In this document: in pieces, positions 4,156 through 63,995 of the stretch
How the letters are laid out: each line of letters opens with the position of its first letter
Position numbering within the stretch: the stretch's first letter is position 1
Assembly: GCA_034433515.1 (NCBI GenBank)
Contig: DAOUAL010000021.1
Location: 317 to 64,316 of the forward strand
Direction of reading: 5' to 3'
From: Anaerolineae bacterium
Lineage (GTDB): Bacteria; Chloroflexota; Anaerolineae; UBA4142
DNA: 64,000 nt
Position numbers and translations under genes: made by a program
Notes under the pieces: generated by a model
Database searches by the model: none
The model's input: only the letters and a program-made list of their open reading frames with translations
Told to the model about the DNA's origin: nothing

Positions 4156-5132
4156 GCCTTGTTCCCTTTGGACTTTTGAAAAAACATTACATACTCGTGC
4201 TTGAAGATGTAAAATCCGCCGGCTAATGCGCGCCGTCGCCAAAAATGATCCAGATTGCGCTTGGCGCGCGTATTCACAATATTCTTAACCACAATACTTT
4301 TCAAACGGTAGCCGCATTCAAGGACTCGCTGCATTGTATAAAAACCAAGCGGGACCCACTCTCCTTTGCTATACTTGTCACCGATGACTACAACGAGAAA
4401 GTGGTTCTCCTCAAGAAGCGGATAACTGGCTTTCACGACATGCCCGAAGGCGTCCAGAAAATCTTCCAGACGAGTAGCGTTGCACAAGTCGCGAGGATCA
4501 TCACTGAATTTGATGATATCGTGGTATGGCGGATGCATGATAACCAGTTGCACTTGCTTACGCTCGTGCTGTGCTAGCACTTGGCGTACCTGTTCAAAGG
4601 TTTGCGCTTGGGTGCTATCACCCACCACAACATCCGTCCATACGTTGAATTGATTTGTTTCCGCCTCAATCTTCTTGCGGCTTTCTTCAGCAACGCCTGG
4701 AATTAACTCGATTCCAATTCCATTTCGACCCAATTGTCGGCACTCGATGAGAGTCGTTCCACTGCCCAAGAAGGTATCTAAAACAGTATCACCCATTTTC
4801 GTGTAACGCATCATCGCTTGATAGGGGATTTGCGGAATGAAATTGCCGTGATACTCTCCATTGTGCATGCCCTCTTTGTCACGCGCCCCAATCAGCCAAA
4901 GACTATCCGTAATGATTTGCTTGTATTCCGACCACCGATTCAGGTCAATATCATTGAATGGATTGGTCTTGGGCGGCAAATTAGACCCTCCGGGCTCTTT
5001 GGTTTTGACCGGCGCCTGCCACAAACCCGGTTGAGCGGCATCCGATTCACGCACGATCTCAACTAGATCGTCTATCTTGTAAATTGGATTTGACTCACTC
5101 GGTTTGGGTGTAACTTTCTTCTTGCGTGGCAT
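4152..5132 (-). CDS. DNA methyltransferase (N6-adenine or N4-cytosine type, PF01555-like blocks in permuted order)
   Basis: AdoMet motif I block IPYQAMMRYTKMGDTVLDTFLGSGTTLIECRQLGRNGIGIELIP. About 80 residues later, catalytic motif IV LVIMHPPY, then the IVVKN...FKHEYVMFFQK block. Start placed at ATG 5132 (MPRKKKV) with AAGGGG upstream; the ORF-track start is 5165. Confidence 0.75.
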   Translation of the reverse strand: MPRKKKVTPKPSESNPIYKIDDLVEIVRESDAAQPGLWQAPVKTKEPGGSNLPPKTNPFNDIDLNRWSEYKQIITDSLWLIGARDKEGMHNGEYHGNFIPQIPYQAMMRYTKMGDTVLDTFLGSGTTLIECRQLGRNGIGIELIPGVAEESRKKIEAETNQFNVWTDVVVGDSTQAQTFEQVRQVLAQHERKQVQLVIMHPPYHDIIKFSDDPRDLCNATRLEDFLDAFGHVVKASYPLLEENHFLVVVIGDKYSKGEWVPLGFYTMQRVLECGYRLKSIVVKNIVNTRAKRNLDHFWRRRALAGGFYIFKHEYVMFFQKSKGNKA

Positions 5133-19425: not shown

Positions 19426-20304
19426 TCAGTGGGGGATCACATGCCAAAACATCTGCCGTGTCTGTTCCCATCGGTTGATCAGCGCGCGTGCCCACTCACT
19501 GCCGGTCACCTCGGCGTGCCGTTGCACGAGTGAATACAAGCGGGACTCGGTCGCCGGGTGGTCCAGGCGTTGCGCGCGCACGAGTTGCGCATTCATCCGC
19601 TTGGCGAGAATGTTTTCGCTATCATAGACGAATGCCTCCCCGCCGGTCATGCCCGCGCCAAAATTTCGCCCGACGGTTCCCAGAATAACGACAGTGCCGC
19701 CTGTCATGTACTCGCATCCGTGATCGCCCACCCCTTCGACGACAGACAGCGAGCCGCAGTTGCGGACGGCAAAGCGTTCGCCGACGCGCCCAGCGGCAAA
19801 AAGCATTCCACCGGTCGCACCATACAACAAGGTATTGCCCGCGATGAAATTTTCGTTCGTCGCCCAACGCGCCTGCGCCGGCGGCCGCAAAACAATTTCG
19901 CCGCCCGCCATGCTTTTACCCACGTAATCGTTTGCCTCGCCGATGAGGGTGAGATGCATGCCGTTGATGCAGAACGCGCCAAAACTCTGCCCCGCACTGC
20001 CGTGGAACGTCACGCGAATGGTGCCCGGCGGCAACCCCGCATCGCCGTAGCGCCGTGCAATTTCGCCGGCAAGTCGCGCGCCTACCGTACGGTCGGTGTT
20101 GTGAATCTCGTGCTCGAGCACAATCGGTGTGCACGCTTCGACGGCGGGCAAGGCAGCAGCACACAACCAATCATCGAGCGTCTCGGCGGGCAGGGGATCG
20201 TTCCGTGCTTGAACATTACGTCGCGGGCGAGTCCACGTAGGATCAGGATCAATCAGCATTCGCCCTAATTCGATTTGTGGCACTTGCCAGGATTGGTTGA
20301 GCAA
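19426..20304 (-). CDS. gltB: glutamate synthase C-terminal GXGXG domain protein
   Basis: GSAGQSFGAF, GEANDYVGKSMAGGEIVL, GATGGMLFAAGRVGERFAVRN, GCEYMTGGTVVILG, GAGMTGGEAFVYD. TTG 20304 has GGGAGA 7 nt upstream; alternative start ATG 20259. Confidence 0.85.
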   Translation of the reverse strand: MLNQSWQVPQIELGRMLIDPDPTWTRPRRNVQARNDPLPAETLDDWLCAAALPAVEACTPIVLEHEIHNTDRTVGARLAGEIARRYGDAGLPPGTIRVTFHGSAGQSFGAFCINGMHLTLIGEANDYVGKSMAGGEIVLRPPAQARWATNENFIAGNTLLYGATGGMLFAAGRVGERFAVRNCGSLSVVEGVGDHGCEYMTGGTVVILGTVGRNFGAGMTGGEAFVYDSENILAKRMNAQLVRAQRLDHPATESRLYSLVQRHAEVTGSEWARALINRWEQTRQMFWHVIPH

Positions 20305-20351
20305 GAATCATCTCCCTGTTGGTAGAGGGCGCGGTATAGCACCCGCCGAAC

Positions 20352-20451
20352 CGAGTGCAACAACATGATAGTTGCATACCAGACGGAGGGGAAAATGGTT
20401 ACCGAGACGGCAAAGTTTCCACTACGCCCTTTCATGTTGGTGCACTACTAG
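20352..20451 (+). mobile_element. MITE-like element copy 3 (100 bp, subfamily A, short form)
   Basis: cGAG...CTAG flanks. Its terminal CTAGTAG provides the TAG stop (20450-20448, minus strand) of the large glutamate synthase ORF. Confidence 0.85.
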
Positions 20452-23400
20452 TCGGTCAGCAACGCGCTGTTGAGGACTGACCATTTGACATCTTGCATCC
20501 CGCGCGCCAGAGTGCCGCGTTCGCCTTTGGGGCGCGGGTTAAATTTCAAGCGTTCAACGTGCCCAATCGCTTCCTCGAACGAGCGCATCCCCAGCGCCGC
20601 GAGATACTCGCGTGTCTCTTCGGCGATGAATTGAAAATAAGCCATAATGCGTGTGGGATCGTTCGGAAATTTTTTGCGCAAGTCTTCGCGCTGGGTGGCG
20701 ATGCCGGTCGGGCAGGTGTTGGTGTGGCACACGCGTGCCATAATGCAGCCCGCCGCCACCAGCACCGCCGTGCCAAAGGACACCTCGTCGGCGCCCAGCA
20801 GGGCAGCAACGATGACGTGGCGCGCTGTTTTGAATCCCCCGTCCACACGCAGCCGCACCCGTCCGCGTAAATTGTTGGCGACGAGCACTTGTTGTGTCTC
20901 GGCGAGTCCCAGTTCCCAGGCGATCCCGGCATGCTTCATCGAACTGAGCGGCGAGGCGCCGGTGCCGCCGGAATGACCACTGATCTGCACAACATCGGCG
21001 AACGCTTTGACGACGCCGGCGGCAATCGTGCCGACGCCGGCTTGGGCGACCAACTTGACCGAGACCTTGGCGCGCGGATTGATGCGTTTCAAATCGTACA
21101 CCAACTGCGCCAAATCTTCGATGCTGTAAATGTCGTGGTGCGGCGGCGGCGAAATCTGCGCCGTGCCCGGCGTCGTGTAGCGAATTGCCGCAATCTCCGC
21201 CGACACTTTGGTGCCCGGCAGTTGCCCGCCTTCCCCAGGTTTTGCACCCTGCGCAATTTTGATTTGCAATTCGTCCACCCAGGTCAAATAGGCGGGCGTC
21301 ACGCCGAACCGCGCGGAGGCGACTTGCTTGATGCGGCTGTTGCTTTCGGTTTGGTAGCGCGAACGATCTTCGCCGCCTTCCCCGGCATTGCTCATTGCGC
21401 CCAAGCGATTCATCGCAATCGCAATGGCTTGGTGCGCTTCGAGCGAGAGAGCACCGTGCGACATAGCAGCCGCCGAAAAGCGTTTGAGAATCGCCGAGGC
21501 GGGCTCGACTTCGGAGAGCGGAATCGGATTGCCGAACAAGATGTCGAGATGGTCGGACAAATCGCCGGACGAATAGTCGTGCACTTGGAGGGTGAATTGG
21601 CGATACTTGTCGTACGCGCTTTGAAAATTGCCGTTCAACACGCCGGGCGCCGTGACGGCGCTGTGCAGGGCTTTGACGACGGCTGGGTTGAAACTGTGAT
21701 ATTCGCCTTCCTTTTTGTATTTGTAAAAGCCATAGTTCTTGAGATGCAAGTGCGCTTCGTCTTCGCGCTGAAAGGCGTGCACGTGATGGGCAAAGACAAT
21801 GCGCGCCAGGTCGCGTAACGAAATCCCGCTGATATGATTCGGCGTACCGGTGAAATAGCGATTCACCACTTGATCCGCCAGTCCGATGATTTCGAAAATC
21901 TGCGCGCCGTGATACGCATCGAGCGTAGCGATGCCCATCTTCGCCATAATTTTGAGCAAGCCCTTTTCTGCCGCACGCACAAAATTTTCTTCGGCGCGCG
22001 CCGGCGAAAGGGCCTTTTCGTCACCTTCGCCTAGCGGTGAGGGGCGACCCGGGCGAAATGCCGCCAAGGTGCGCACACTCGCCAACGCGAGATAGGGATT
22101 GATCGCGTCCGCGCCGTAACCGAGGAGACACGCAAATTGATGCACGTCGCGCGCATCCCCTACTTCGGCGATGAGACTGGTGCGCCAGCGTTTGCCCACG
22201 CGCAAGAGATGATGATGCACCGCGCTGACAGCGAGCAGCATGGGAATCGGCGCGCGGGTGGCTTCGGTCACGCGGTCGCTCAAAATCAAGATGACGTTCC
22301 CAGCATTGACCGCGCGTTCGGCTTGCGCGCACAAGTTTTCTACCGCGCGTTCGAGCGCATCCTCATCCTCGCTCACCGCAAAGGTTGCACTGAGCAACGC
22401 ATGCGGAAATTCGTTGTCCATCGCGCGAATTGCATCGAGTTGCGAGCGCGTGAGCAAAGGACTGTCGAGTTCGATCAGATGCGCGTGTGTAGGGGATTCG
22501 TCGAGCAGGTTGCCGCGTGCGCCCAGTAGTACGCGCAACGACATCACCAACGTTTCGCGCAACGCGTCGAGCGGTGGATTGGTCACCTCGGCAAAGCGTT
22601 GTTTGAAATAGTGATACAACGGCCGCTCAAATTCCGAAAGAACTGCCAGCGGCGTATCGTCGCCCATAGACCCGATCGGTTCGGTGGCTCCGATAGCCAT
22701 AGGGCGCAGCACGACCACCAGTTCCTCGTCGGTGTAACCAAAGAGCGCTTGCTGGCGCGTGACCGAAACGCCTTCGCCTTTGCGCGGCGCGCTCGACGTA
22801 ACCGGCAAGCGTTTCATCTGCGCGTCGAGCCATTGCTGGTAGGGCTGGCGCGTTGCGTAATGATTCTTGATGTCGGCATCGTGCCAGCGTTTGCCGCGCG
22901 ATACATCCACGACGAGGCATTGCCCGGGCCCCAGTTTCCCTTTTTCGACGATGCGCGCCGGATCAACTTCCAAGGCGCCGGCTTCGGAGGCTGCGACAAT
23001 CAAGCCATCATCGGTAACCAGGTAGCGCACCGGACGCAAGCCATTGCGATCGAGGGCGATGCCGACGATTTGTCCATCGGAGTAGGCGACGGCGGCGGGA
23101 CCGTCCCAAGGTTCCATCAAGGTCGAGTGATAGCGATAGAATGCTTTCCACGCTTCCGGCAAGTCGTCAATTTTTTCCCACGCTTCCGGCATCAGCATCA
23201 ATTGCGCGTGCACCAGGTCGCGTCCGGCGAGCGCGAGCAATTCAAGCGCGTTGTCGAGCATTGCCGAATCGCTGCCCGTCGGATCAATCACGGGCAAGAG
23301 CGACTGGGCATCGTCAAAGAGATTCGACGCGAGGTACGGTTCGCGCGCACGCATCCAAGTAACGTTGCCTTGTAAGGTGTTGATTTCGCCATTATGGCAG

Positions 23401-24131
23401 AGGAAGCGAAAGGGTTGGGCGCGTTCCCAGTTGGGAAAGGTGTTGGTGCTATAGCGCTGGTGAAAGAGCGCGAGGGCGGTTTCGTAGGCTGGGTCGCGCA
23501 GGTCGGCATAAAAGTTAGCGAGTTGAAAGGAGATAAGCAAGCCCTTGTACACCAGCGTGCGCGACGAAAGCGACGGGATGTAGAACGGTTCCAGCTCTGC
23601 AACGCGCGCGCGTCGTTCGATTTCTTTGCGCGCCACAAAGAGGGCACGTTCGAAGGCTAGCCCAGCCGCGAGGTGGGACGGTCGTGCCAACAACACTTGC
23701 TCGATGTGCGGACAAATCGAGCGGGCGTGGTCGCCTAGCACATCGAGGTCAATGGGCACGGGCCGCCACGCGAGAATCGGCAGATGGTGCGTTTCGAAAA
23801 CGGCTTGGATGATTTGTTTGGCTTGGCTCCGCGCCGTCACATTGGTGCGCGGTAAAAAGAACACGCCTACCGCCAGATCGCCGCGCGCCGGCGCGACCAA
23901 GCCAAGGCTTTCAAGTTCGCGAGCAAAGAAACGATGCGGAATTTGCGTGAGGACGCCCGCCCCATCGCCGGTGCGCGCATCCGCCGCAATCGCACCACGA
24001 TGCGCCAGACGATTGAGCGTGGCGAGGGCATCTCGCAAAATAGCGTGCGAAGGTTGCCCGGTCAAGTGGGCGATGAAACCGGTCCCGCAGTTGGCACGCT
24101 CGCGCCCAGCAAACGATTCAACCGAAGGCAT
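20448..24131 (-). CDS. gltB: glutamate synthase large chain lacking the GXGXG domain (amidotransferase + central + FMN domains)
   Basis: 1227 aa. Ntn-amidotransferase N-terminus (..RERANCGTGFIAH). FMN domain with GHSGGTGASP. Ends in the linker after the FMN domain (..LNSALLTD*). Confidence 0.9.
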   Translation of the reverse strand: MPSVESFAGRERANCGTGFIAHLTGQPSHAILRDALATLNRLAHRGAIAADARTGDGAGVLTQIPHRFFARELESLGLVAPARGDLAVGVFFLPRTNVTARSQAKQIIQAVFETHHLPILAWRPVPIDLDVLGDHARSICPHIEQVLLARPSHLAAGLAFERALFVARKEIERRARVAELEPFYIPSLSSRTLVYKGLLISFQLANFYADLRDPAYETALALFHQRYSTNTFPNWERAQPFRFLCHNGEINTLQGNVTWMRAREPYLASNLFDDAQSLLPVIDPTGSDSAMLDNALELLALAGRDLVHAQLMLMPEAWEKIDDLPEAWKAFYRYHSTLMEPWDGPAAVAYSDGQIVGIALDRNGLRPVRYLVTDDGLIVAASEAGALEVDPARIVEKGKLGPGQCLVVDVSRGKRWHDADIKNHYATRQPYQQWLDAQMKRLPVTSSAPRKGEGVSVTRQQALFGYTDEELVVVLRPMAIGATEPIGSMGDDTPLAVLSEFERPLYHYFKQRFAEVTNPPLDALRETLVMSLRVLLGARGNLLDESPTHAHLIELDSPLLTRSQLDAIRAMDNEFPHALLSATFAVSEDEDALERAVENLCAQAERAVNAGNVILILSDRVTEATRAPIPMLLAVSAVHHHLLRVGKRWRTSLIAEVGDARDVHQFACLLGYGADAINPYLALASVRTLAAFRPGRPSPLGEGDEKALSPARAEENFVRAAEKGLLKIMAKMGIATLDAYHGAQIFEIIGLADQVVNRYFTGTPNHISGISLRDLARIVFAHHVHAFQREDEAHLHLKNYGFYKYKKEGEYHSFNPAVVKALHSAVTAPGVLNGNFQSAYDKYRQFTLQVHDYSSGDLSDHLDILFGNPIPLSEVEPASAILKRFSAAAMSHGALSLEAHQAIAIAMNRLGAMSNAGEGGEDRSRYQTESNSRIKQVASARFGVTPAYLTWVDELQIKIAQGAKPGEGGQLPGTKVSAEIAAIRYTTPGTAQISPPPHHDIYSIEDLAQLVYDLKRINPRAKVSVKLVAQAGVGTIAAGVVKAFADVVQISGHSGGTGASPLSSMKHAGIAWELGLAETQQVLVANNLRGRVRLRVDGGFKTARHVIVAALLGADEVSFGTAVLVAAGCIMARVCHTNTCPTGIATQREDLRKKFPNDPTRIMAYFQFIAEETREYLAALGMRSFEEAIGHVERLKFNPRPKGERGTLARGMQDVKWSVLNSALLTD

Positions 24132-34065: not shown

Positions 34066-36991
<2,926 letters not shown>

Positions 36992-37119: not shown

Positions 37120-37719
37120 ATGCGGAAAAGCGTCAGCGTGGACGCCGCGCGGATGGATGAAAAAATTTTTACCGAAGCCGTCAAGGTTTTTCGGCAAAAA
37201 GGGTATCACGCTGCCTCGATGCAAAACATCGCCGATGCGGTGGGGCTCCAAAAAGGATCCCTCTATCACTATATCGCCAGCAAAGAAGAACTCCTCTTTA
37301 AGATTTTTGAACGCAGTACCGGCGCACTGACCCGCCAACTCGAAGAAATCATCGCCGCCAAAGTCGCCCCCTCTGAAAAATTACGCCAAGCCATTCGAGC
37401 CCATCTGGTCGCCTTGTGCGAACAACTCGATATCTATTCGGTCTATTTGTCTGAACGGCGTGCGTTGAGCGGGCGCTATCACACCAAAGTCCGTGCAGAA
37501 GGCGAACGCCACGCCATGCTCCTCGAAAAAATTTTGCAACAAGGGATTGACCGCAAAGAATTCCGCGCGATGGATACCAAGATGGTTGCCTTGGCAATCT
37601 TGGGAATGTGCAATTGGCTCTATCAGTGGTATTCGCCCACCGGACGTTTGTCTCCGCAGGAAATTTCCATCATCTTTGCTGATCTCGTGGTGAATGGCTT
37701 GGCACGCAAGCGTAAATGA
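37120..37719 (+). CDS. TetR/AcrR family transcriptional regulator
   Basis: N-terminal TetR HTH (FRQKGYHAASMQNIADAVGLQKGSLYHYIASKEELL). Confidence 0.85.
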   Translation: MRKSVSVDAARMDEKIFTEAVKVFRQKGYHAASMQNIADAVGLQKGSLYHYIASKEELLFKIFERSTGALTRQLEEIIAAKVAPSEKLRQAIRAHLVALCEQLDIYSVYLSERRALSGRYHTKVRAEGERHAMLLEKILQQGIDRKEFRAMDTKMVALAILGMCNWLYQWYSPTGRLSPQEISIIFADLVVNGLARKRK

Positions 37720-37790
37720 TTTTCGAGGGCGGATTGCTCAACGCATCGAAAATCATCAAAGATAAAAACAAAAAATTCAAGGAGGAAGCA

Positions 37791-38222
37791 ATGGCCTTGT
37801 TAGCGGTGGGCACCCCTGCCCCAATGTTCAAAGCAATGAACTTGACGGGACCCGAAATCAATTTGGAGAACTACAAAGGCAAGAAACCGGTCGTTCTGAT
37901 GTTTTCCAGTACGCGCGTGGACCCCGCGCAAATCGCCCAAGTCCGCGATTTGTGGAAAAAGTACCGCGAAAAAGTTGAGATCATCACCATTTCGTTCAAA
38001 CTCCCCAGCGTCTCGATGGCAAAAGCGTTTATGCAACAAATGGGCGCCAAATTCCCAGCCACGTACGACCCCGCCCAAAACATTTACAAAATGTACGGTG
38101 TTGAGAATCCCGTCGCCCTCGTGGTCATTGACGTGAATGGGAACGTCGCGTACGCTGCCGAAGCGTTGGACACCAAAGACACCAAAACGCTCGAAGACGC
38201 TATCGTCGCACATATACAATAA
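37791..38222 (+). CDS. thioredoxin-fold (AhpC/TSA/redoxin-like) protein without any cysteine
   Basis: Redoxin-like N-terminus (VGTPAPMFKAMNLTGPEINLENYKGKKPVVLMF). The PxxxTxxC position reads ..FSSTRVD.. and there is no Cys in the 143 aa. Start ATG 37791 with AAGGAGGA upstream. Confidence 0.6.
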   Translation: MALLAVGTPAPMFKAMNLTGPEINLENYKGKKPVVLMFSSTRVDPAQIAQVRDLWKKYREKVEIITISFKLPSVSMAKAFMQQMGAKFPATYDPAQNIYKMYGVENPVALVVIDVNGNVAYAAEALDTKDTKTLEDAIVAHIQ

Positions 38223-41660: not shown

Positions 41661-41734
41661 CTTGCTTTTGCAATTGAGCCGGGTTATAATTGACTTGGGT
41701 AGCGATTCTGAATTTTCTTGCCCGGGAGGAAGTT

Positions 41735-44206
41735 GTGATAGCGGATGAAACGCTTCGGCAAGCCGAGCCGGAAAATCTCCCTCAAGATCCCGAAGACTGG
41801 GCACGTGCGTTCGTTGAGCATAGCCCAGAGGTCATTTGGGCTTGCGATGCCAAGGGACGGATTATCTTCGCCAATGATGCGGCTTGCCGGTTCTTTGAGT
41901 ACGATCGTGCCACGTTGCTCACGCTGCACATCACCGACCTCCTCGCCCCCGACCAAATCTTTCCTCACGATCTAGAGCAAAATTTTGCGCAAATTTTTCC
42001 GGCTCATCACATTGTCAAATTTCGGACTAGCACCGACCAGGTCCGCGACGCCAGTTACATTCCCACCCCCATCCGCAATGCCGAAAACCAAGTCATTGGT
42101 TATCAGATCATTTTGCATGATACGACCGAACAACAACGCGCCCTGGAACAGTTGAAACAACGCAACGAAGAACTTGCCGCGCTCAACGCCATCGCCGATA
42201 TTCTCAGCAATCCGCGCGATTTTATGCGCGCGCTTGATCAAGTGTGTGAACAAATCGTTTCGATTACCGGGATGGAATCGGCAGTCATCCTCCTCGTGAA
42301 CCAGGACCAACAATGCACCGAAATCGTTGCCCACCGCGGCATCAGCCAGCAATTGTATCAAGCCGGCTACCGGGTTGACTTGAACGATCCCGTCACCCAT
42401 TACATTGCGGTCGAAGGCAACGTCTTTGCGATGGACGACCTCAGTACTTATCAAGGCAACGGGCTTGCCGGACCACGTGCCGAAGGATACCGCGCCGGCA
42501 TCGGCGTGCCGATTTTGAAACGCGACAAGCCGGTAGGCATCATCGGAGTCGGCAGCAAACTCCGCGTCAAGTACGATCCCACCGATATCAACTTGCTCCT
42601 CACCATCGGACGCCAGATCGGCAAAGCACTGGAAAATGCGGAATTGTACGCGCAGATGGAACGCCGCTTGAAAGAACTTGATGGAATCGCCAAAATGACG
42701 GCGGCGTGTAGCGGCACTTTGGATCCCATCGAATTAGCCCAGATCGCCGTGCATTGGACAGCTCAACTTTTGGCATGCGATTCGGCGACCGTGCGTTTAC
42801 TTTACGAGAACAAAATGCGCCTCGCCGCAAATTATGCGCGCCATCCCATGCCATTGCGTTTCGAGCTAGAGGTGGACGATGTATTCAGTCCTATCTTTAC
42901 TCAGTCCCGTCCTCTCATCATCGAAAACGTGGAGCAATATGATTTGCCAACTACCCATCGCCAAGGTTTCCTCTCGGTAGGCATTCGCGCGATCGCCATT
43001 CTGCCGATGCAAGCCCGGGAACATGTGTTGGGTGGGTTGGCGGTAATTTTTGAACAACCCCATCGTTGGCAAGCCAATGAACTTGGTCTGGCGCAAACGA
43101 TTGCCAACCACGTCGCCAGCGCGATTGAAGGCGCACAGTTATATCAAAACGTCTTGAGCGAACAACGCAAAGTCCAAGCCATCTTCGATAGTGGACTCAG
43201 TGGCTTGTTTGCGACCGATGCAGAAGGGCGCATCACAATGTTCAACCACGCCGCCGAAAGTATTACCGGTTGGTCATACAACGAAGTGTCCGGCAAAAAG
43301 TGGGAAGAGGTTTTCAGCGACGCGTCTCCAGATTCCCCCGAGCCACTCATCCACGATGCCTTGTATCGCAAAAAGACAGTCTTTGTGCAAGAGGGCAAAC
43401 AGATCCGTACGCGCGATGGACGTCTGATTCCGGTTGCCAAAGCGGTGGCGCCTCTCCTGGACGCCCAAGGCAATGTAACGGGTGCCGTCGGCGCGTTTTG
43501 GGATCTGTCGCGGGAGCAAGCCGCCGAGATGGCGCGCGAAGAGTTGCTCAAAGAAATTACGCACCAATTGCGCTCGCCACTGACCGCCGTTCTTGCCGCC
43601 TTGCAATTATTGGAGCGTCCCAATCTTTCGGTCGAAAGACGCGCGGAAATGTGGACCGCCCTCAAACGGGATGGGCAACGCCTCCGACGCTTTGCCGATC
43701 AATTCCTCGATCTAGAGGCAACCTTGAAATCGGTGCGCCCGCTGAATATGGAACCGCTTTCCATCGCCGTGCTTGTCCGCGCGCTGGTCCGTTCATTCCA
43801 AACCCAGAAAAGCCGGCATCGTTTTCATGTGAAATCTACGCCAAAAAATTTATTGGCTTTTGCCGATGAATGGCGCGTGGAAAATGTGCTCCGCAATCTG
43901 CTCGATAATGCCATTGCCTATTCACCTCCCGAAACCCTGATTACCATCACGATCAAACCCATCCCGGATCAGATGATCCTGATCTCGGTGCGCGATCAAG
44001 GTCCCGGCATCCCGCTCGAAAACCAAACCAAAATTTTTGCCCCCTTCTATCGTTCCGCCTACCCACAAAAGCGAAATACCTATGGCCATGGCTTGGGCCT
44101 CGCCATCGCCAAACGCAATGTGGAAGAAATGGGGGGACACATTTGGGTCGAAAGTAAAACAGGACACGGCGCGACATTCTTTTTTACCTTACGGAGGTAC
44201 CAATGA
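41735..44206 (+). CDS. sensor histidine kinase (PAS-GAF-GAF-PAS-HisKA-HATPase_c)
   Basis: H-box ITHQLRSPLTAV, N-box LLDNAIAYS, G-boxes DQGPGIP and GHGLGLAIAK. Start placed at GTG 41735 (GGGAGGAAG upstream), because a TTGCTT-17-TATAAT promoter ends at 41690. Confidence 0.85.
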   Translation: MIADETLRQAEPENLPQDPEDWARAFVEHSPEVIWACDAKGRIIFANDAACRFFEYDRATLLTLHITDLLAPDQIFPHDLEQNFAQIFPAHHIVKFRTSTDQVRDASYIPTPIRNAENQVIGYQIILHDTTEQQRALEQLKQRNEELAALNAIADILSNPRDFMRALDQVCEQIVSITGMESAVILLVNQDQQCTEIVAHRGISQQLYQAGYRVDLNDPVTHYIAVEGNVFAMDDLSTYQGNGLAGPRAEGYRAGIGVPILKRDKPVGIIGVGSKLRVKYDPTDINLLLTIGRQIGKALENAELYAQMERRLKELDGIAKMTAACSGTLDPIELAQIAVHWTAQLLACDSATVRLLYENKMRLAANYARHPMPLRFELEVDDVFSPIFTQSRPLIIENVEQYDLPTTHRQGFLSVGIRAIAILPMQAREHVLGGLAVIFEQPHRWQANELGLAQTIANHVASAIEGAQLYQNVLSEQRKVQAIFDSGLSGLFATDAEGRITMFNHAAESITGWSYNEVSGKKWEEVFSDASPDSPEPLIHDALYRKKTVFVQEGKQIRTRDGRLIPVAKAVAPLLDAQGNVTGAVGAFWDLSREQAAEMAREELLKEITHQLRSPLTAVLAALQLLERPNLSVERRAEMWTALKRDGQRLRRFADQFLDLEATLKSVRPLNMEPLSIAVLVRALVRSFQTQKSRHRFHVKSTPKNLLAFADEWRVENVLRNLLDNAIAYSPPETLITITIKPIPDQMILISVRDQGPGIPLENQTKIFAPFYRSAYPQKRNTYGHGLGLAIAKRNVEEMGGHIWVESKTGHGATFFFTLRRYQ

Positions 44207-46301: not shown

Positions 46302-46313
46302 GTGTCTGCTTGT

Positions 46314-46397
46314 GGAGGAGTGCCGGAGTGGACTATCGGCGCCGCCTTGAAAGCGGATGGGTCAAAAGCCACGGAGGTTCGAATCCTTCCTCCTCCG
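46314..46397 (+). tRNA. tRNA-Ser (anticodon TGA), no encoded CCA
   Basis: Hand-folded cloverleaf. Acceptor GGAGGAG/CTCCTCC, anticodon loop CTTGAAA, long variable region, T-arm GGAGG-TTCGAAT-CCTTC, discriminator G. Confidence 0.85.
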
Positions 46398-46473
46398 TCG
46401 GAGTGACGTGCGGCGAGTGCCGAGTGTCGTGCGCAAGTGCCACGTCACCCGACCCTTGGCACACGCAACATTT

Positions 46474-46569
46474 GGAGGGGTCGCATAGCCTGGTCTAGTG
46501 CGGTCGCCTGCTAAGTGACTGTAGGGGTCTTGAAAGCCTCTACCGCGGGTTCAAATCCCGCCCCCTCCG
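46474..46569 (+). tRNA. tRNA-Ser (anticodon GCT), no encoded CCA
   Basis: Acceptor GGAGGGG/CCCCTCC, anticodon stem GTCGC/GTGAC with loop CTGCTAA, 7-bp variable arm, T-arm GCGGG-TTCAAAT-CCCGC. Confidence 0.85.
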
Positions 46570-46660
46570 CTCTAATTCGTTGCATCGTTTCATCGTTACG
46601 TCGTTGGTGTGGTTCAATGCTTTTATCAAAGCAACGATTGAACGAAGCAACGCCGAAGAA

Positions 46661-46734
46661 CTCCCCGTAGCGCAATTGGATAGCGCGCAGCCCTGCGGAG
46701 GCTGAGGTTGCGAGTTCAAGCCTCGCCGGGGAGG
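46661..46734 (+). tRNA. tRNA-Arg (anticodon GCG), no encoded CCA
   Basis: Acceptor CTCCCCG/CGGGGAG (C1-G72), D-arm GCGC-AATTGGATA-GCGC, anticodon stem CAGCC/GGCTG with loop CTGCGGA, T-arm GCGAG-TTCAAGC-CTCGC. Confidence 0.8.
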
Positions 46735-46738
46735 CAAC

Positions 46739-52744: not shown

Positions 52745-52835
52745 CACCTATACTTTTTTCCGGGTTGCCTCCTCATCCAAAGTTGGATGCTTTTCTCCCT
52801 ATCGCCAATTAGAATGGATGCTTAGGAGGATCAAC

Positions 52836-53729
52836 ATGTCTGTTTTATCCGATTTATCGCAAGCGATTGCCGCAACCGTTGAAACCGCCGGCGCAAGTGT
52901 GGTACGTGTGGAAGCACGCCCCCGTTTCCCGGCAAGCGGGATCGTTTGGTCGAGTGATGGGATCATCGTTACAGCGCATCACATTGTCGAGGAGGAAGAC
53001 AATATTCAAATCGGTCTCGGCGATGGACGCACCCTTGGCGCAAAATTGATTGGGCGCGATCCAACGACGGACATTGCGGTGTTGCGCACGCCGGCATCGG
53101 GCCTGGACACGCGCGCATGGACAGACCCGAAGGCAATTCACGTGGGGCATCTCGTTCTCGCACTGGGGCGCCCCGGTACAACGGTGATGGCGACGATGGG
53201 GATCGTCAGTGCCTATGGTGAAGCGTGGCGCACGCCGGCGGGCGGCAAACTCGACCGCTACTTGCAAACCGATGTCGTGATGTATCCCGGTTTTTCTGGC
53301 GGCCCCCTTGTGGATGCAAACGGTCAGTTTATCGGCTTGAACACGTCGGCACTGCTCCGCGGCATCAGTCTGACAATTCCAGCGACCACGATCAAATCGG
53401 TGGTCGAAACGCTTTTGTCGAAAGGGCGCATCAGTCGCGGTTATCTCGGTATAGGCGCGCAACCGGTGCGATTGCCGGTAACATTGGCGAAACAATTGAA
53501 TCAAGAAACCGGCTTGCTCATCGTTTCGGTTGAGCCGGGTGGTCCCGCCGAAAAAGCCAACTTGCTGTTAGGCGATGTCATCGTCGCCCTAGGGAATGAC
53601 CCCGTGCGCCATCTGGATGATTTGCTCGCCGCGTTGAGCGGTGATCGCGTGGGCGCAACGGTGCCGGTGCACATCGTGCGCGGCGGTCAAACGATGGAAC
53701 TCAAAGCAACCGTGGGCGAGCGCAACTAG
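52836..53729 (+). CDS. S1C (HtrA-like) serine protease with PDZ domain, no signal peptide seen
   Basis: Catalytic triad contexts TAHHIV, TDIAVL, GFSGGPL. C-terminal PDZ (GYLGIGAQPV...GDVIVALGN). Confidence 0.8.
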   Translation: MSVLSDLSQAIAATVETAGASVVRVEARPRFPASGIVWSSDGIIVTAHHIVEEEDNIQIGLGDGRTLGAKLIGRDPTTDIAVLRTPASGLDTRAWTDPKAIHVGHLVLALGRPGTTVMATMGIVSAYGEAWRTPAGGKLDRYLQTDVVMYPGFSGGPLVDANGQFIGLNTSALLRGISLTIPATTIKSVVETLLSKGRISRGYLGIGAQPVRLPVTLAKQLNQETGLLIVSVEPGGPAEKANLLLGDVIVALGNDPVRHLDDLLAALSGDRVGATVPVHIVRGGQTMELKATVGERN

Positions 53730-53744
53730 TCAGTGGAGATTTCA

Positions 53745-54374
53745 ATGAATTTGATACAGCAACTCAACGACGATCTTGCCGCGAAGGTTGCGAAAGCACG
53801 GCCAAGTCTCGTCGAGATACATAACGGTCACGGTGGCGCGGGCGCCGGCATCATCGTCCGTGCCGATGGTTTGATTATCACGAACGCGCACGTCATCGGA
53901 CGGCGTGGCTTGCATGCCATCTTGCCGGATGGCCAAGTCTTGCCGGTACGGCTCATCGCCTATGATCGGGCTCATGATCTCGCCGCGTTGCGCGTGGAGG
54001 CGGACACTTTGCCAACCATCGAGTTTGGCGATTCGAAAAATCTGCGTCCTGGGGACTGGGTGATCGCCCTGGGGCATCCGTGGGGCGTCGTCGGCGCGGC
54101 GACGGCGGGCATTGTCATTGGGAGTGGTACGGATTTTCCAGAGTTTCAAACAGGCGGGCGTGAATTCATCGTTGCCAGTTTGCATCTGCGACCCGGGCAT
54201 TCCGGCGGGCTGATGGTGGATAGCAACGGCTGTCTCGTTGGTGTGAATGTGATGATCAACGGACCCGATGTAGGCATGGCAATCCCGGTTCATGTCGTCA
54301 AGCAATTCCTCAAAGAACTGGATGAGGTGCAACCGGCGCGGCGACCATACCACGCCGAAAGGATGATGGTGTAA
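53745..54374 (+). CDS. S1C trypsin-like serine protease without PDZ domain
   Basis: TNAHVI, HDLAALRV, RPGHSGGLMVD triad contexts. 209 aa. Confidence 0.8.
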   Translation: MNLIQQLNDDLAAKVAKARPSLVEIHNGHGGAGAGIIVRADGLIITNAHVIGRRGLHAILPDGQVLPVRLIAYDRAHDLAALRVEADTLPTIEFGDSKNLRPGDWVIALGHPWGVVGAATAGIVIGSGTDFPEFQTGGREFIVASLHLRPGHSGGLMVDSNGCLVGVNVMINGPDVGMAIPVHVVKQFLKELDEVQPARRPYHAERMMV

Positions 54375-54380
54375 AATAAA

Positions 54381-54414
54381 ACGGGCAACCTGGGTCGGGT
54401 TGCCCGTATCTTTA
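54381..54414. terminator. bidirectional terminator between convergent genes
   Basis: ACGGGCAACC-tgggtcg-GGTTGCCCGT, flanked by AAAATAAA and ATCTTTAT. Confidence 0.65.
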
Positions 54415-54837
54415 TCCGCCCGCCTTGCCCAGTGCAAAACTCAGCACCAAGACTATCAACACAAACCCGGTAATCGCCACGTACAACCAATCGCGTTCGA
54501 TTGCAAATGCAATGACAGAAACGGCAACACGTACCACCGGAATCGCAATGAGTACGAGCAAGCCCAAACTGATGATGGCGTACGGTTTGAGCGCAAGCAC
54601 GCCGCTAAACACATCGCCTAACGTGGTGGGAAAATCCGGGCGCGGATGATAGGCAACAATGCGGGGCAGATCGTCCAGTGGAATCTGATGATAGCCCGTT
54701 CCACCGGTGAGAACAACCGCCACAATTCCGATGCCGACGATTACAAAACTGAGAATCACGCCCCCGCGCAACAACCGCGCGATAACACGTTCAACCCGCA
54801 ACGTTTCGTCATGATTATTTGTCTGACTCGCTGACAT
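54412..54837 (-). CDS. DUF1634-like small membrane protein
   Basis: Start at ATG 54837 (MSASQTNNHDETLRVERVIARLLRGG). 3-4 TM helices. Position downstream of a TauE/SafE gene is typical for DUF1634. Confidence 0.6.
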   Translation of the reverse strand: MSASQTNNHDETLRVERVIARLLRGGVILSFVIVGIGIVAVVLTGGTGYHQIPLDDLPRIVAYHPRPDFPTTLGDVFSGVLALKPYAIISLGLLVLIAIPVVRVAVSVIAFAIERDWLYVAITGFVLIVLVLSFALGKAGG

Positions 54838-55183
54838 TTTCCGTCTCGCTCCAATCCGATGACTCGTCCATAGCGTTGAATTCCGGTGGACTAAGACGAT
54901 CCAGCGCCCATAATACCCCATGGATGGATAACACACCGACCGCAGCGCTAATCACTGTCGGAATCAAATTAACATCGCCAATCACGATGGCATTCAGCGT
55001 ATCGGCTTGGAAAAAATTCGGCGCCGCCCACGCACTCAGGAAACCGAGCAACCACGTTGCGCCCCATAGCACCCGATCAAACATCGGCGATTGGCGCGCC
55101 CGTGGAATCAGCAACACCGCTGGAATAGTCCATACCGCTGACACAGCGGCAAAAATCAGAAATTGAGTGAACGACACTCGCAA
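54815..55183 (-). CDS. hypothetical membrane protein
   Basis: 122 aa with 3-4 hydrophobic helices and an acidic C-terminus. No family recognised. Confidence 0.45.
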   Translation of the reverse strand: MRVSFTQFLIFAAVSAVWTIPAVLLIPRARQSPMFDRVLWGATWLLGFLSAWAAPNFFQADTLNAIVIGDVNLIPTVISAAVGVLSIHGVLWALDRLSPPEFNAMDESSDWSETENVSESDK

Positions 55184-55189: not shown

Positions 55190-56035
55190 TCAAAACGATA
55201 AGCCGAGCCCTTTGACGAGCATTTGCAAGGCAATGAAAATCATCACGCCGATAAAGATGTGGCGCAGCCAAGTGCTGCGCAAGCGCATCATGATTCGTGT
55301 GCCGAACATCGCACCGATCAACACACCCATGGCGACCGGCGCGGCAATGAAGGGATTGATGTCACCGCGAATAAAGTACACGCCCGCGCTCGCCGCCGCC
55401 GTTACCCCGATCATAAAATTGCTGGTTGCCGTCGAAACTTTCATTGGCAACTTCATCGCCAAGTCCATCGCCGGGACTTTGAGAACGCCACTCCCAATGC
55501 CGAGCAAGCCAGACACCACCCCGGCAATGAACATCAAGGGCAAACCGTACCGTGCGCCGCGCACGTTGTAATTCACTTGCTGATTCAGCACCGAATCGTA
55601 ATACGAACTTCCCAGGTGCAGAAAATTCGCCAAGGGTCCCATCTCTACGCCCACCGGTAATTCGGCATCGCGCTGGCGAAACATCGCGTACGCCGAGTAC
55701 AGCAAGACAAGACTAAAGATGACAAATAACCCGGACCCACCCACAAAGCCGGCGAGGAATGCGCCACAGATCGCTCCCAGCGTTGTCCCGATTTCGAGGA
55801 ACATCGCCACGCGAATGTTGGTTATCCCATCCCGTAAATACGCCGCCGCTGCACCAGACGAGGTTGCGATCACCGAAACAATGCTCGCGCCAATGGCATA
55901 ATGAATGTCAATACCTAACAGCAACGTGAGCATCGGCACCAAGATCACCCCGCCGCCCAACCCCAGCAATGCGCCGAACACTCCCGCACCCGTAGATACG
56001 ATAAAGGTTTCGATGAGAAAAAGAATGGCTGCCAT
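55190..56035 (-). CDS. sulfite exporter TauE/SafE family protein
   Basis: 281-aa polytopic protein with the duplicated Gly-rich helices typical of TauE/SafE (GALLGLGGGVILVP, GLLGIGSGVLKVP). Confidence 0.8.
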   Translation of the reverse strand: MAAILFLIETFIVSTGAGVFGALLGLGGGVILVPMLTLLLGIDIHYAIGASIVSVIATSSGAAAAYLRDGITNIRVAMFLEIGTTLGAICGAFLAGFVGGSGLFVIFSLVLLYSAYAMFRQRDAELPVGVEMGPLANFLHLGSSYYDSVLNQQVNYNVRGARYGLPLMFIAGVVSGLLGIGSGVLKVPAMDLAMKLPMKVSTATSNFMIGVTAAASAGVYFIRGDINPFIAAPVAMGVLIGAMFGTRIMMRLRSTWLRHIFIGVMIFIALQMLVKGLGLSF

Positions 56036-56236
56036 TTCAATGACTCTGCAAGAATGCCAATTCTAAACGATGCAATTCTAGTCTGATGAATCGAATGTGT
56101 CAACACATTCCTGCTGCTGGTGATTACCCAAAACTCACCGCAGAGGCGCAGAGGTCGCCGAGTTGTCTTATTTTTTTCTCTGCGTTCTCGGCGTCTCGGC
56201 GGTAAAATGGAGATGTGAGTAATCACCAGATTCCTG

Positions 56237-56264
56237 TTGACAACGACACAAGAAATAGTACAAT
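56237..56264 (+). promoter_or_regulatory. sigma-70-type promoter of the peroxiredoxin gene
   Basis: TTGACA, 16-nt spacer, TACAAT. Confidence 0.5.
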
Positions 56265-56315
56265 CATCGCGCGTTACCGATGATCATAAAATTTTCCCTA
56301 AATGGAGGTTGAGCC

Positions 56316-56801
56316 ATGTCCGAACTCAAGATCGGTGATGTCGCGCCGGATTTTACCGCACCCGGCGTCATCACCAAACCCGAAGTGCAACGCCTCGAAA
56401 TCAAACTAAGTGATTATCGCGGCAAAAAGAATGTGGTGTTGGCATTCCATCCCTTTGCCTTTACCGCCCTCTGAGACAAGCAAATTCCTTCCTACGAAGC
56501 GCAACTCGCCGAGTTCGAAGGATTGAATAGCCAGGTTCTGGCTATCAGTTGTGATCCGATTTTTTCCAAGCAAGCGTGGGGCAAATCGCTGGGCGGTATC
56601 TCTTATCCCCTCGTTGCCGATTTCTGGCCCCATGGCCAAGTCTCTCTCGCGTACGGCATTTTTAACGAAAAACTTGGACGCCCCGATCGAGCGATCTTTC
56701 TGGTGGATACAAACGGAATTTTGCGTTGGATCAAAAAATATGAACCCGGAATCCTGCCCGATAATGGTGAACTCTTGACCGAATTGCGCAAACTACGATA
56801 A
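56316..56801 (+). CDS. peroxiredoxin (AhpC/TSA family) with in-frame TGA at the peroxidatic position: candidate selenocysteine protein (or fresh nonsense pseudogene)
   Basis: ATG 56316 (GGAGG upstream). Reads ...[16 protein letters not shown](56472-56474)-DKQIPSYE... and continues in the same frame as ORF 56523..56801 to TAA. PFAFTAL+TGA matches the Prx motif PxxxTxxC. The downstream Arg context RAIFLVD is intact. Confidence 0.7.
56487..56545 (+). promoter_or_regulatory. candidate SECIS-like stem-loops downstream of the in-frame UGA
   Basis: Hairpin 1 at 56487-56521: CCUU/AAGG, CGAA/UUCG, GCG/CGC, loop CAACU, starting 13 nt after the UGA. Hairpin 2 at 56527-56545: AUAGCCAG-GUU-CUGGCUAU, a perfect 8 bp. 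Confidence 0.35.
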
Positions 56802-56817
56802 CGCCAAGCCGGGTTTC

Positions 56818-56926
56818 CTAGTCGTGCACCAACATGCAAGTGCGTGGTGAAAACTCGATTTTTAGCCACATCTGTCAACGTCTTCCCCTCGGTCTGGTAT
56901 GCAACGATTTCATGTTGTTGCACTGG
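56818..56926 (-). mobile_element. MITE-like element copy 6 (109 bp, subfamily B)
   Basis: CTAG...CTGG flanks. Lies 17 nt after the peroxiredoxin stop codon. Confidence 0.85.
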
Positions 56927-56949
56927 CAACCCGGCTTTTTCCAAATCTA

Positions 56950-57321
56950 ATGAGAATCTTTACTCTGGAACAAGCCAATCAACTTATCCCTTACCTCAAC
57001 CAAACCATTGACCAATTAATCGAAATCCGCGATCAACTTGCCCGCGAGGGCGTGCACCTTCATTCCTTGTTGCAACGTGCCAGCGGCAACGGCGGCAATC
57101 AACATAGCAATGCGTACTATCTTTTGCTCGAACGGTTCAATGCGCGCTTGAGCGAATTGGAAGCGTTGGGCTGTGAACTCAAAGACCTGGATCAAGGTCT
57201 AGTGGATTTTCCTTCTTATCGCGACGGCAAGTTCGTTTATCTCTGTTGGCAACGCGGCGAAGATCGCATCCGTTATTGGCACACACGAGAAGCCGGCTTT
57301 GCTGGACGGCAACCTTTGTAA
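56950..57321 (+). CDS. DUF2203 family protein
   Basis: MRIFTLEQANQLIPYL..., GCELKDLDQGLVDFPS, YLCWQRGEDRIRYWH pattern characteristic of DUF2203. Confidence 0.65.
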   Translation: MRIFTLEQANQLIPYLNQTIDQLIEIRDQLAREGVHLHSLLQRASGNGGNQHSNAYYLLLERFNARLSELEALGCELKDLDQGLVDFPSYRDGKFVYLCWQRGEDRIRYWHTREAGFAGRQPL

Positions 57322-57327: not shown

Positions 57328-58038
57328 ATGACTCAACTCTGGCTGGTCAATCTCGACCTCGTTCCTTACGCTGACGCGCTTGCGCTGCAACATCGCCTTG
57401 TGGCTGCACGCAAGCGCGGCGCATTAAACGATACCCTCTTGCTCTTGGAACATCCGCCGGTGTTCACGTTGGGGCGGAACGCCACTGACGCGAACATTAT
57501 CGCCACGCCGGAATTTCTTGAACAACAGGGCATCCAAGTCTTTCGCGTGGAACGTGGCGGCGATGTAACGTATCACGGACCTGGGCAACTCGTCGGCTAT
57601 CCCATTCTCGATCTGCACAATTTTCGATTAGACGTGGGCTGGTTTGTGCGATCGCTGGAAGAAATGCTCATTCGTGTCGTCCGCGATTTTGGCATCCCAG
57701 GGAAACGCCTTGACAAGTTGGTGGGCGCGTGGCTGGATACTCCCACCGGCGAAGCCAAGATTGCGCAAATCGGCGCGCGTATCGAGCAATGGATTACCTA
57801 TCACGGTTTTGCGCTCAACGTGGATCCGAATATGGCGCACTTTGATTTGATCGTCCCCTGCGGCATCGCCGATAAAGCCGTCACCTCGCTCCGACGCGTG
57901 CTGAATCATCCCATCGAGATGCGCGCCGTGCGCGAACGCGTTGCCGCACGCTTTGGCGAAGTGTTTGGCGCAAAGATCGTCGAGGTATCGTCCGAAGAGT
58001 TCCAAGTCAGGTTAGAACAAGCCACGGCACCGAGTTGA
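57328..58038 (+). CDS. lipB: octanoyltransferase (lipoyl(octanoyl) transferase)
   Basis: RGGDVTYHGPGQLVGYPIL, KIAQIGARI, VPCGI motifs. Confidence 0.9.
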   Translation: MTQLWLVNLDLVPYADALALQHRLVAARKRGALNDTLLLLEHPPVFTLGRNATDANIIATPEFLEQQGIQVFRVERGGDVTYHGPGQLVGYPILDLHNFRLDVGWFVRSLEEMLIRVVRDFGIPGKRLDKLVGAWLDTPTGEAKIAQIGARIEQWITYHGFALNVDPNMAHFDLIVPCGIADKAVTSLRRVLNHPIEMRAVRERVAARFGEVFGAKIVEVSSEEFQVRLEQATAPS

Positions 58039-62957: not shown

Positions 62958-63995
62958 TTATCCTCGTTGAATTCCTTGCCACTGTTCAAGGGGGTCGGTG
63001 GAACGAACCACGTGCATCCCGGCTTGCGCAAAGCGTTGAAACGCCGCATCGGCTTGGTCAGTATAGTCAATCACGCCGGGCACTACCACCGGCGAGGTAC
63101 AATCTTCGAGCAGATAAACTTTATGCGCGAGCGCGGGATCGGTCGCGCGAATATCCTCGAGTAAATCCGCAATCGTCCATGCAACACAGTGACTCTTGGC
63201 TTCGCCGGCGATAATGACCGCATCAAATTCCTTGAGCAAGTTGATGAACTTGGAACTTTTGTCCGCCAAGAGTTTGTGATCGAAACTTGTTCTGACTTCG
63301 GGTCCCAATACCGAATAGTGTTCGGTCAGCGGAACATCGCCCTTGATGTGAAAATCGGGCCGACTGTACCGCGCAACACTGTGAAAGAACACGGCTTCTT
63401 CAAACGCCGGCACCAACGCATGTCCAATCCCACCGAGCATGGCGTGATAGGGCCAAATGGTGAGCGCGTATTTACCGCTGGCTTCAAGTTGCTGGGCATA
63501 GTATTCGAGATGGCGTTGACCATATTCGGGTGTGATGCCCAAACTAGACGCAATTGCCGGATTGAATTTCCACACGCCGTGCCGAATGTCGTCAAGTGAG
63601 ATGAGGGTGTACGGGGCGGGGTGTTCGCCTTGATCGTTGATGAGATAAACGGCGTGGAAAATTTGGATGGCTTGATGCGTGTCCATCGTGGGAACGATTT
63701 GCGTAATCACAGCGAGGTTGCGATAAATAAATTCACACAATCGGCGCGTATCGTCCACCGCGCCGGTGCCGGAGCGTCCGCCGACGTACAACTCAAAGCT
63801 GGGAATACAAAAGGTGTTTTGGACATCCACCGCGATCAAACTGATTTTGAAACGGTCGTGTGCAGCGGGCTGAAGTTGATGTTGGGTTGCCCATACTCGC
63901 GCTTGAGTAGCGCGCTCTTGATACGGGACCTGCCACACCTGTCCAACTTTTTCCGCCGTGAAATGCGGCGGCAAGGGCAAAGCTGAACGAGTCAT
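62958..63995 (-). CDS. isochorismatase-family hydrolase (nicotinamidase-like, long form)
   Basis: [15 protein letters not shown] (Asp motif) and [14 protein letters not shown] (nucleophile Cys). Adjacent to the PRTase gene. 345 aa, longer than classical PncA. Confidence 0.65.

Follow-up and report, generated by a model that had tools for sequence, protein, structure and literature searches.

Identification of a Putative Selenocysteine-Containing Peroxiredoxin

We identified a gene that probably encodes a selenocysteine (Sec)-containing peroxiredoxin in a stretch of 64,000 nucleotides (nt) of contig DAOUAL010000021.1 from an Anaerolineae bacterium (Chloroflexota), hereafter referred to as the window. 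The gene (56316-56801, + strand, 161 codons) is predicted to encode a 161-residue peroxiredoxin from the AhpE-like, probably 1-Cys-type, branch of the AhpC/TSA family, with Sec in place of the peroxidatic cysteine at an in-frame UGA (56472-56474, + strand, residue 53), and we estimate the probability of this reading at roughly 0.88. Judged from sequence comparison, the UGA itself almost certainly encodes Sec, and the gene appears to be a genuine, unannotated Sec-peroxiredoxin within an already known selenoprotein family. The initial annotation of the window had proposed a candidate selenoprotein at this site that was hidden from the list of open reading frames (ORFs). This proposal is supported by 91 loci with TGA at the same position, by the ratio of nonsynonymous to synonymous substitution rates (dN/dS) on both flanks of the TGA and by covarying hairpins that are specific for the Sec loci.

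The reading frame runs from ATG 56316 to TAA 56799-56801 and is the frame of ORF 56523-56801 in the mechanical ORF list. Its sole interruption is the TGA at 56472-56474, which is flanked in frame by 52 codons on the 5' side and 108 codons on the 3' side, and the frame contains neither a frameshift nor a further stop codon. Direct reading of the sequence places a Shine-Dalgarno sequence, GGAGG (56305-56309, + strand), 6 nt upstream of the ATG. A sigma-70-like promoter (TTGACA-16-TACAAT, 56237-56264, + strand) is predicted by consensus match only, with 11 of 12 consensus positions, and the same promoter arrangement is found upstream of the orthologue in three related loci (L001, L082, and L083). 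Start codon, GGAGG, promoter and the 108 codons to the TAA had already been described in the initial annotation, and their coordinates were all confirmed on the sequence. The inverted repeat ATCATCG-N8-CGATGAT (56263-56284, + strand) overlaps the -10 box of this promoter and the 5'-untranslated region. It was considered as an operator and rejected, as one of its arms is mutated in the 98%-identical locus L001 and a conserved operator is therefore improbable.

TGA terminates about 20 of the 54 genes of at least 100 amino acids in the window, for example the gene at 41690-44206, and the genome is therefore not globally recoded, in line with the earlier remark that TGA is an ordinary stop codon elsewhere in the window. 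A scan of the window for other TGA-interrupted genes gave no convincing candidate.

When a Cys was put at position 53, the protein matched the Pfam domain AhpC-TSA (PF00578) over residues 6-138 with 103.5 bits, compared to a cutoff of 26. The best relatives of solved structure are entries of Mycobacterium tuberculosis AhpE (Rv2238c; PDB 1XXU, 1XVW, 4X0X, and 5C04; E = 2e-33 to 5e-32), and the alignment spans residues 4-150. Taken together, the AhpE entries range from E = 2e-33 to 3.5e-31. The next peroxiredoxin subfamily, the typical 2-Cys peroxiredoxins, follows at E = 3e-22, eleven orders of magnitude behind AhpE. Because the AhpE entries are far ahead of the other subfamilies, the protein was assigned to the AhpE-like subfamily. 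In the alignment the TGA column coincides with the peroxidatic Cys of AhpE, P46-x3-T50-x2-TGA53 aligns with the PxxxTxxC motif and R125 aligns with the catalytic Arg. The placement of the TGA at the peroxidatic position of PxxxTxxC and the intact conserved Arg, both first noted from the sequence by eye, are thus confirmed by the AhpE alignment, and the assignment of residue 53 as Sec rests on this alignment together with the conservation of the column described below. No NCBIfam equivalog scored above its cutoff for the window protein; the top match, the PrxU equivalog (NF040737), was rejected at 77.1 bits compared to a curated cutoff of 270. The canonical resolving positions are without Cys. 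Another cysteine, Cys79, is found throughout the clade except in L084, which has Ser at this position, and it could form a selenenylsulfide.

Conservation of the TGA Codon and Orthology of Sec and Cys Forms

For comparison, 80 genome loci and 80 metagenome loci related to the gene were fetched and the codon column was mapped by tblastn. The codon at column 53 is TGA in 91 of the 160 loci, TGC in 52 and TGT in 17, and no other codon was found. The TGA loci include 81 distinct sequences with 40-98% identity and derive from Chloroflexota, Dehalococcoidia, Myxococcota, Planctomycetota, Acidobacteriota, and Sulfobacillus. Among the Myxococcota are the cultured species Anaeromyxobacter terrae and A. 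soli, in which the SECIS of the family is present as well. Comparison with Cys homologues had been suggested as a means to verify the identity of the column, and with TGC or TGT in 69 of the 160 loci this identity is established. The initial annotation had also considered that close relatives might carry TGC while the window allele showed other decay. This was not found: nine relatives with 74-98% identity, all of them Chloroflexota, all carry TGA, and no decay was detected. A metagenome scan yielded just four further sequences of the close clade.

Within the window clade dN/dS is about 0.05-0.2 on both flanks of the TGA (34 codons upstream and 100 codons downstream), calculated for sequence pairs with diverged or saturated synonymous sites. 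For the window gene and L081 the values are 0.05 upstream and 0.14 downstream. The low dN/dS upstream of the TGA indicates that the N-terminal piece is maintained as protein.

The window protein shows 62-64% identity to the nearest Cys forms (P0002-P0004). In other parts of the family, identities of up to 78% between Sec and Cys forms indicate recent switching between the two. Orthology of the two forms is supported by gene order. The window gene is followed by a DUF2203 gene (56899-57321, + strand), which is also found after the Sec orthologues L165 and L166 and the Cys orthologue L162, and by a gene for a lipoate-protein ligase with an LplA/B catalytic domain (57328-58038, + strand), which is kept in L162-L166. 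Because the order peroxiredoxin-(DUF2203)-lipoate ligase is common to the window gene, the Sec orthologues on long contigs and the nearest Cys forms, we consider the Sec and Cys forms to be orthologues. Around Sec and Cys orthologues in L162, L163, L165, and L166 the order is peroxiredoxin, DUF2203, optionally a creatininase gene, and lipoate-protein ligase. Such conserved order hints at a functional link between the peroxiredoxin, DUF2203 and lipoylation.

A protein database search with the full-length protein returned dozens of "peroxiredoxins" of 91-105 amino acids that cover only the C-terminal 57-65% of the query. Such fragments are expected when gene callers stop at a conserved TGA. Among the annotations of P0001 and L165 (9785-10279; assembly GCA_040961345.1), NCBI and Logan calls split the gene into ORFs of 55 and 92 amino acids, and one JGI call translates the TGA as Trp (FAFTATWDKQIP).

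Two Conserved Hairpins Downstream of the UGA

Folding of the 60 nt from codon 53 gave a mean z-score of -1.58 for Sec loci (n = 75) compared to +0.39 for Cys loci (n = 66) at equal GC content (p = 1e-19). Two stem-loops after the UGA had been reported in the initial annotation, with a comparison to shuffled controls as the proposed check. Family-wide, the Sec loci lie far beyond their shuffles and the Cys loci do not. Both stem-loops exist, the first at 56486-56522 and the second as a perfect 8-bp hairpin at 56527-56545, and both are linked to Sec.

Since the reading frame fixes the register, the 81 distinct Sec sequences could be aligned without gaps. In this alignment a model with two hairpins pairs 88.5% of the cells, compared to 32-50% in controls in which the model was slid along the alignment. 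Thirteen of the 17 pairs have changed on both sides in a compensatory manner, and none of 500 shuffles reached any of the observed measures. In the close clade, codons +3 to +24 show a synonymous-codon identity of 0.69, compared to 0.54 for the remaining codons (p = 0.004), and synonymous conservation peaks at nt +43 to +78. In Sec loci an unpaired leader of mostly 8-11 nt precedes hairpin 1, and hairpin 1 and hairpin 2 are separated by 0-3 nt. The stretch of 52 nt from the UGA to hairpin 2 folds as a single hairpin in Sec loci (mean of 1.05 helices), with a minimum free energy (MFE) of -18.6 kcal/mol compared to -12.5 kcal/mol in Cys loci. No conserved long-range helix joining the UGA region to sequence past hairpin 2 was found. 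An alternative fold specific for the window, with a GCC triloop at a spacing of 33, was rejected, being weak (-1.7 to -6.9 kcal/mol) and not conserved in relatives. The evidence that the two-hairpin element is a conserved structure linked to Sec is good.

Hairpin 2 (56527-56545, + strand; AUAGCCAG-GUU-CUGGCUAU, 8 bp), which we propose as the SelB-binding hairpin, occupies alignment columns 56-74 and has its GUU loop (56535-56537) at a distance of 60 nt from the UGA. In the 81 Sec sequences its pairing amounts to 96%, five of its eight pairs show compensatory changes, and its loop invariably starts with G64-U65 (loops GUC, GUU, GUG, and GGUCG). For the family as a whole, RNAalifold predicts no helix other than hairpin 2, the MFE of which is -9.5 to -11.0 kcal/mol. 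A stem of at least 7 bp at a spacing of 59-60 nt is present in 95% of the Sec loci and in 7% of the Cys loci, which encode the same or near-identical peptides in this region (DAQVVGI, NTQVLAI, and DAQVLGI). With a stability criterion, hairpin 2 is found in 99% of the Sec loci and 12% of the Cys loci. In the nearest Cys orthologues, Q-I-L is encoded in place of Q-V-L and only 3 bp of hairpin 2 are kept. Of the elements found throughout the family, hairpin 2 distinguishes Sec loci from Cys loci best.

Among the Cys forms, five Acidobacteriaceae loci (L038, L075, L117, L126, and L144) still have a stem of 8-9 bp at the position of hairpin 2, about +59 nt from the Cys codon; its loops are altered (AGUCG, GGUUG, GCUGG, ACUGG, and GCUCG). 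Identity between Sec and Cys forms rises to 78% in the Acidobacteriaceae group, and these hairpins may be relics of a recent conversion of Sec to Cys.

Hairpin 1 (56486-56522, + strand) consists of a lower stem (56486-56491/56517-56522), an upper stem (56499-56501/56507-56509) and the loop CAACU. In the window it begins 11 nt after the UGA and its apical loop lies at +27/28. Its sequence differs between phyla and its pairing register is constant, with 86% pairing in the lower stem and 78% in the upper stem and compensatory changes in three of four and five of five pairs, respectively. At a spacing of 26-30 nt, 69% of the Sec loci have an upper stem of 4 bp or more, compared to 6% of the Cys loci. 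The upper stem in the window is 3 bp, compared to 4-5 bp in the clade consensus; the weakening is due to a G-to-U change (Arg to Leu) that the window has in common with L001. The MFE of hairpin 1 is -9.1 to -11.8 kcal/mol. As a single sequence it folds no better than chance (z = -1.17), and the signal comes from the comparative data only.

A Possible Bipartite Sec Insertion Sequence

In the published model, a bacterial Sec insertion sequence (bSECIS; SECIS for the element in general) has a loop of 3-9 nt, an upper stem of 4-16 bp, a G in the first two loop positions, an apical loop 16-37 nt from the UGA and an MFE of at most -7.5 kcal/mol (PMC13188914). According to reviews a subset of bSECIS elements fails this model; a two-hairpin arrangement is not described there. 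When a ribosome reaches the UGA of the window gene, the downstream mRNA structure would recruit SelB carrying Sec-tRNA(Sec). In the most likely arrangement, hairpin 2, with its GU triloop and G+C-rich 8-bp stem, would be the SelB-binding element, and hairpin 1, folded as a side branch, would shorten the linear distance of 60 nt to an effective path of about 17-22 nt. We prefer a reading in which hairpin 2 binds SelB and hairpin 1 serves as a folded spacer. Whether AhpE-like Sec-peroxiredoxins as a group use such a distinct bipartite SECIS, with a GU-loop hairpin fixed at 59-60 nt and a covarying spacer hairpin that brings it to working distance, is more doubtful, and we put it forward as a tentative proposal.

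Several observations weigh against the Sec reading or against parts of this arrangement. No single hairpin of the window agrees with all four constraints of the bSECIS model: hairpin 1 agrees in distance and MFE and fails by its 3-bp upper stem and its G-less CAACU loop, and hairpin 2 agrees in loop size (3 nt), stem (8 bp), G and MFE and fails by its distance of 60 nt (59-60 nt in the family). A measure of effective spacing gave no distinction between Sec and Cys loci (p = 0.47), so that the spacer role of hairpin 1 is hypothetical. Rfam searches of the whole window at gathering thresholds and of 56200-56900 at E <= 10 gave no match to a SECIS family, a result that is uninformative in that curated bacterial SECIS models are few. 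Pfam detected no SelA, SelB or SelD domains among approximately 50 ORFs of the window that were scanned, tblastn with the Escherichia coli SelA, SelB and SelD proteins gave no match at E <= 1e-4 in the 64 kb, and neither ARAGORN nor Rfam found a tRNA-Sec there. The window is a small part of the genome, and the absence of sel genes from it means little. A tRNA cluster at 46313-46735 (+ strand) comprises tRNA-Ser(TGA), tRNA-Ser(GCT) and tRNA-Arg(GCG), none of which is a tRNA-Sec.

The SelB-binding element could instead be hairpin 1, with hairpin 2 in an accessory role, for instance in pausing the ribosome or stabilizing the structure. The initial annotation had put forward hairpin 1 as the SECIS candidate. 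Its covariation and its link to Sec are borne out, its apical loop lies at a canonical distance (16-37 nt), and 8-11 nt separate the UGA from its base. The spacing of the minimal SECIS of E. coli is similar to the latter distance. Canonical-range criteria, however, hardly discriminate family-wide (75% of Sec loci compared to 64% of Cys loci), whereas the invariant GU, the pairing and the Sec-specific occurrence all single out hairpin 2, which separates the two kinds of loci best. We consider it less likely that hairpin 1 is the true SECIS.

The reading that we prefer, with hairpin 2 as the SelB-binding element, can be compared within one locus, L033 (2995-4819), which is a Thermoflexales (Chloroflexota) metagenome-assembled genome (MAG) contig (JBGSMF010000430.1) that carries a Sec-peroxiredoxin gene (TGA at 3130) and, about 330 nt further on, selD. 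The selD gene has a canonical SECIS (6-bp stem, loop CGUGU, spacing 32), whose GU loop is similar to that of hairpin 2. In the adjacent peroxiredoxin gene, hairpin 1 precedes a hairpin with a GUU loop at +60. No description of a bacterial SECIS with two stem-loops or with a GU loop at +60 was found in the literature searched, with the bSECISearch paper outside that search.

Sec Decoding in the Lineage and Alternative Readings of the UGA

Chloroflexi are listed among the Sec-decoding phyla (PMC1794560, PMC5322559), their tRNA-Sec is of the 8/4 type (PMC5389517), and Sec-type hydrogenases and Sec genes occur together in Chloroflexota (PMC13582414). The selD gene of L033 has an in-frame TGA of its own at 3818, which aligns with Cys17 of E. 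coli SelD. By this alignment, L033 would contain two adjacent selenoprotein genes, one of which acts in the Sec pathway itself. The source organism of the window is probably a selenium user.

With regard to the UGA, the alternative that survives best is that the genome has recently lost its Sec machinery, so that the UGA now terminates translation in a gene that still looks intact. Loss of selenoproteins is common in bacteria (PMC1794560), and the window without Sec machinery and the weakened upper stem of hairpin 1 in the window and L001 would fit such a relic. The sel genes, however, were sought in a small share of the genome. The window gene and L001, which comes from an independent MAG, differ upstream of the TGA by conservative replacements and have a perfect hairpin 2 in both, and the dN/dS values against L081 indicate that purifying selection is still acting. 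We consider a relic improbable.

A slightly slimmer chance is given to a recoded UGA that is read as an amino acid other than Sec, either as Cys by a tRNA-Sec-like tRNA-Cys (selC*/tRNAReC) with SelB and the same SECIS, or by near-cognate read-through, for example as Trp. SelB-dependent insertion of Cys at a SECIS-marked UGA is documented (PMC5389517; Vargas-Rodriguez 2018, as cited in PMC13582414), and the tRNA that decodes the UGA is not visible from the window. On the other hand, selC* has been reported from Firmicutes, Thermodesulfobacteria, Nitrospirae and Proteobacteria and not from Chloroflexi, and the selC* genomes also had the full Sec apparatus. The Sec codon in selD next to the peroxiredoxin gene of L033, from a related Chloroflexota MAG, points to genuine selenium use, and if the inserted residue were Cys, nothing obvious would be gained by keeping TGA with a costly SECIS in place of TGC.

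A recent TGC-to-TGA nonsense mutation or a sequencing error in a dead peroxiredoxin pseudogene would agree with the splitting of the gene by gene callers (pieces of 52 and 92 amino acids in the mechanical ORF list), but is so improbable that we regard it as excluded, because the TGA is conserved in independent loci of widely differing identity, both flanks are constrained without frameshifts or extra stops, promoter and ribosome binding site are intact, the covarying hairpins are specific for Sec and the Sec and Cys forms are orthologues.

Predicted Enzyme Chemistry

By homology to AhpE, the selenolate of U53, positioned and activated by T50 and R125, would attack the peroxide and be converted to a selenenic acid, which would then be recycled by a glutaredoxin- or mycoredoxin-like thiol reductant. 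AhpE of M. tuberculosis depends on mycoredoxin as reductant. Members of the peroxiredoxin family occur as fusions to a glutaredoxin domain (P0077, P0115, and L033, the last with a C-terminal glutaredoxin-like domain carrying CPSC). Both the fusions and the mycoredoxin dependence of AhpE suggest a glutaredoxin-like reductant for the window enzyme. The JGI name of P0091 echoes this mycoredoxin dependence.

Implications for Gene Inventories and SECIS Prediction

The window gene and dozens of its public relatives are now annotated as fragments of 91-105 amino acids, as split ORFs or with the TGA translated as Trp. When each is read as a single Sec-protein, the antioxidant gene inventory of Anaerolineae-type Chloroflexota is corrected. 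The family also represents a large natural dataset on recoding, in which 81 distinct Sec sequences are matched by Cys controls with similar peptides. Beyond membership of a known family, the most novel aspect is the two-hairpin layout of the SECIS with a GU loop fixed at +60. If it acts as proposed, this hairpin would widen the accepted range of distances for bacterial SECIS elements and account for some of those already known to deviate from the model, and selenoprotein finders based on the canonical model would mis-assign or miss the bipartite element.

Other Features of the Window

A second AhpC/TSA-Redoxin gene (37716-38222, + strand) is located directly downstream of a gene for a TetR-family regulator (37120-37719). 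Close to the Sec-peroxiredoxin gene, divergent genes on the - strand encode a TauE/SafE-family membrane protein (55190-56035) and a DUF1634 protein (54412-54936), with a promoter-like site TTGACA-17-TAGAAT at 56103-56075 (- strand); this TauE/SafE-DUF1634 neighbourhood is not conserved in the relatives examined. Tandem Trypsin_2 protease genes lie at 52818-54374 (+ strand), with a PDZ domain in the first and none in the second. Glutamate synthase (19426-24131, - strand) is encoded by two ORFs, the first of 1227 amino acids (amidotransferase, central and FMN domains) and the next of 292 amino acids (a separate GXGXG-domain protein). For three ORFs on the - strand, 3322-4242, 36005-36991, and 62958-63995 (306, 328, and 345 amino acids, respectively), Pfam gave no match at E <= 1e-5.

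Comparison With Known Systems

Peroxiredoxins of PF00578 with a TxxU motif are an established family of prokaryotic selenoproteins (PMC1794560, PMC1088965, PMC13188914). Sec-peroxiredoxin is listed as experimentally verified, and by 2006 it had been counted in Anaeromyxobacter, Acidobacteria, and Chloroflexi. The window gene resembles this family in its AhpC/TSA fold, its PxxxTxxU motif, the existence of Sec/Cys homologue pairs and a SECIS within the coding region downstream of the UGA, and the distribution of its relatives matches as well (Deltaproteobacteria/Anaeromyxobacter, Acidobacteria, and Chloroflexi). It differs in that reviews index the family under COG1225/Bcp, whereas the window gene belongs to an AhpE-like branch, and in that the GU loop of its putative SECIS lies at 60 nt from the UGA, outside the published range.

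The window protein and AhpE are moderately identical and have in common the catalytic Arg, the active-site loop FxPxAFTxxC/U and the DFWPHG motif. The host of the window gene is a Chloroflexota bacterium. AhpE has Cys where the window protein would have Sec, and Val at the position of the extra Cys79 (AISCDP). PrxU of the Eubacterium acidaminophilum type of clostridia is, as predicted for the window protein, a peroxiredoxin with Sec, but it is longer and of the 2-Cys type (a model of 233 positions).

The mini-helix of the E. coli fdhF SECIS, GCA-GGUC-UGC, which was defined by experiment, is very similar to hairpin 2, CCAG-GU[UCG]-CUGG (or CCA-GGUCG-UGG), and both have a G+C-rich stem. The loop of fdhF is located 18 nt after the UGA, whereas the loop of hairpin 2 is found at 59-60 nt with a covarying hairpin of about 39-43 nt in between; the difference in spacing between the two, 42 nt, is about the length of hairpin 1.

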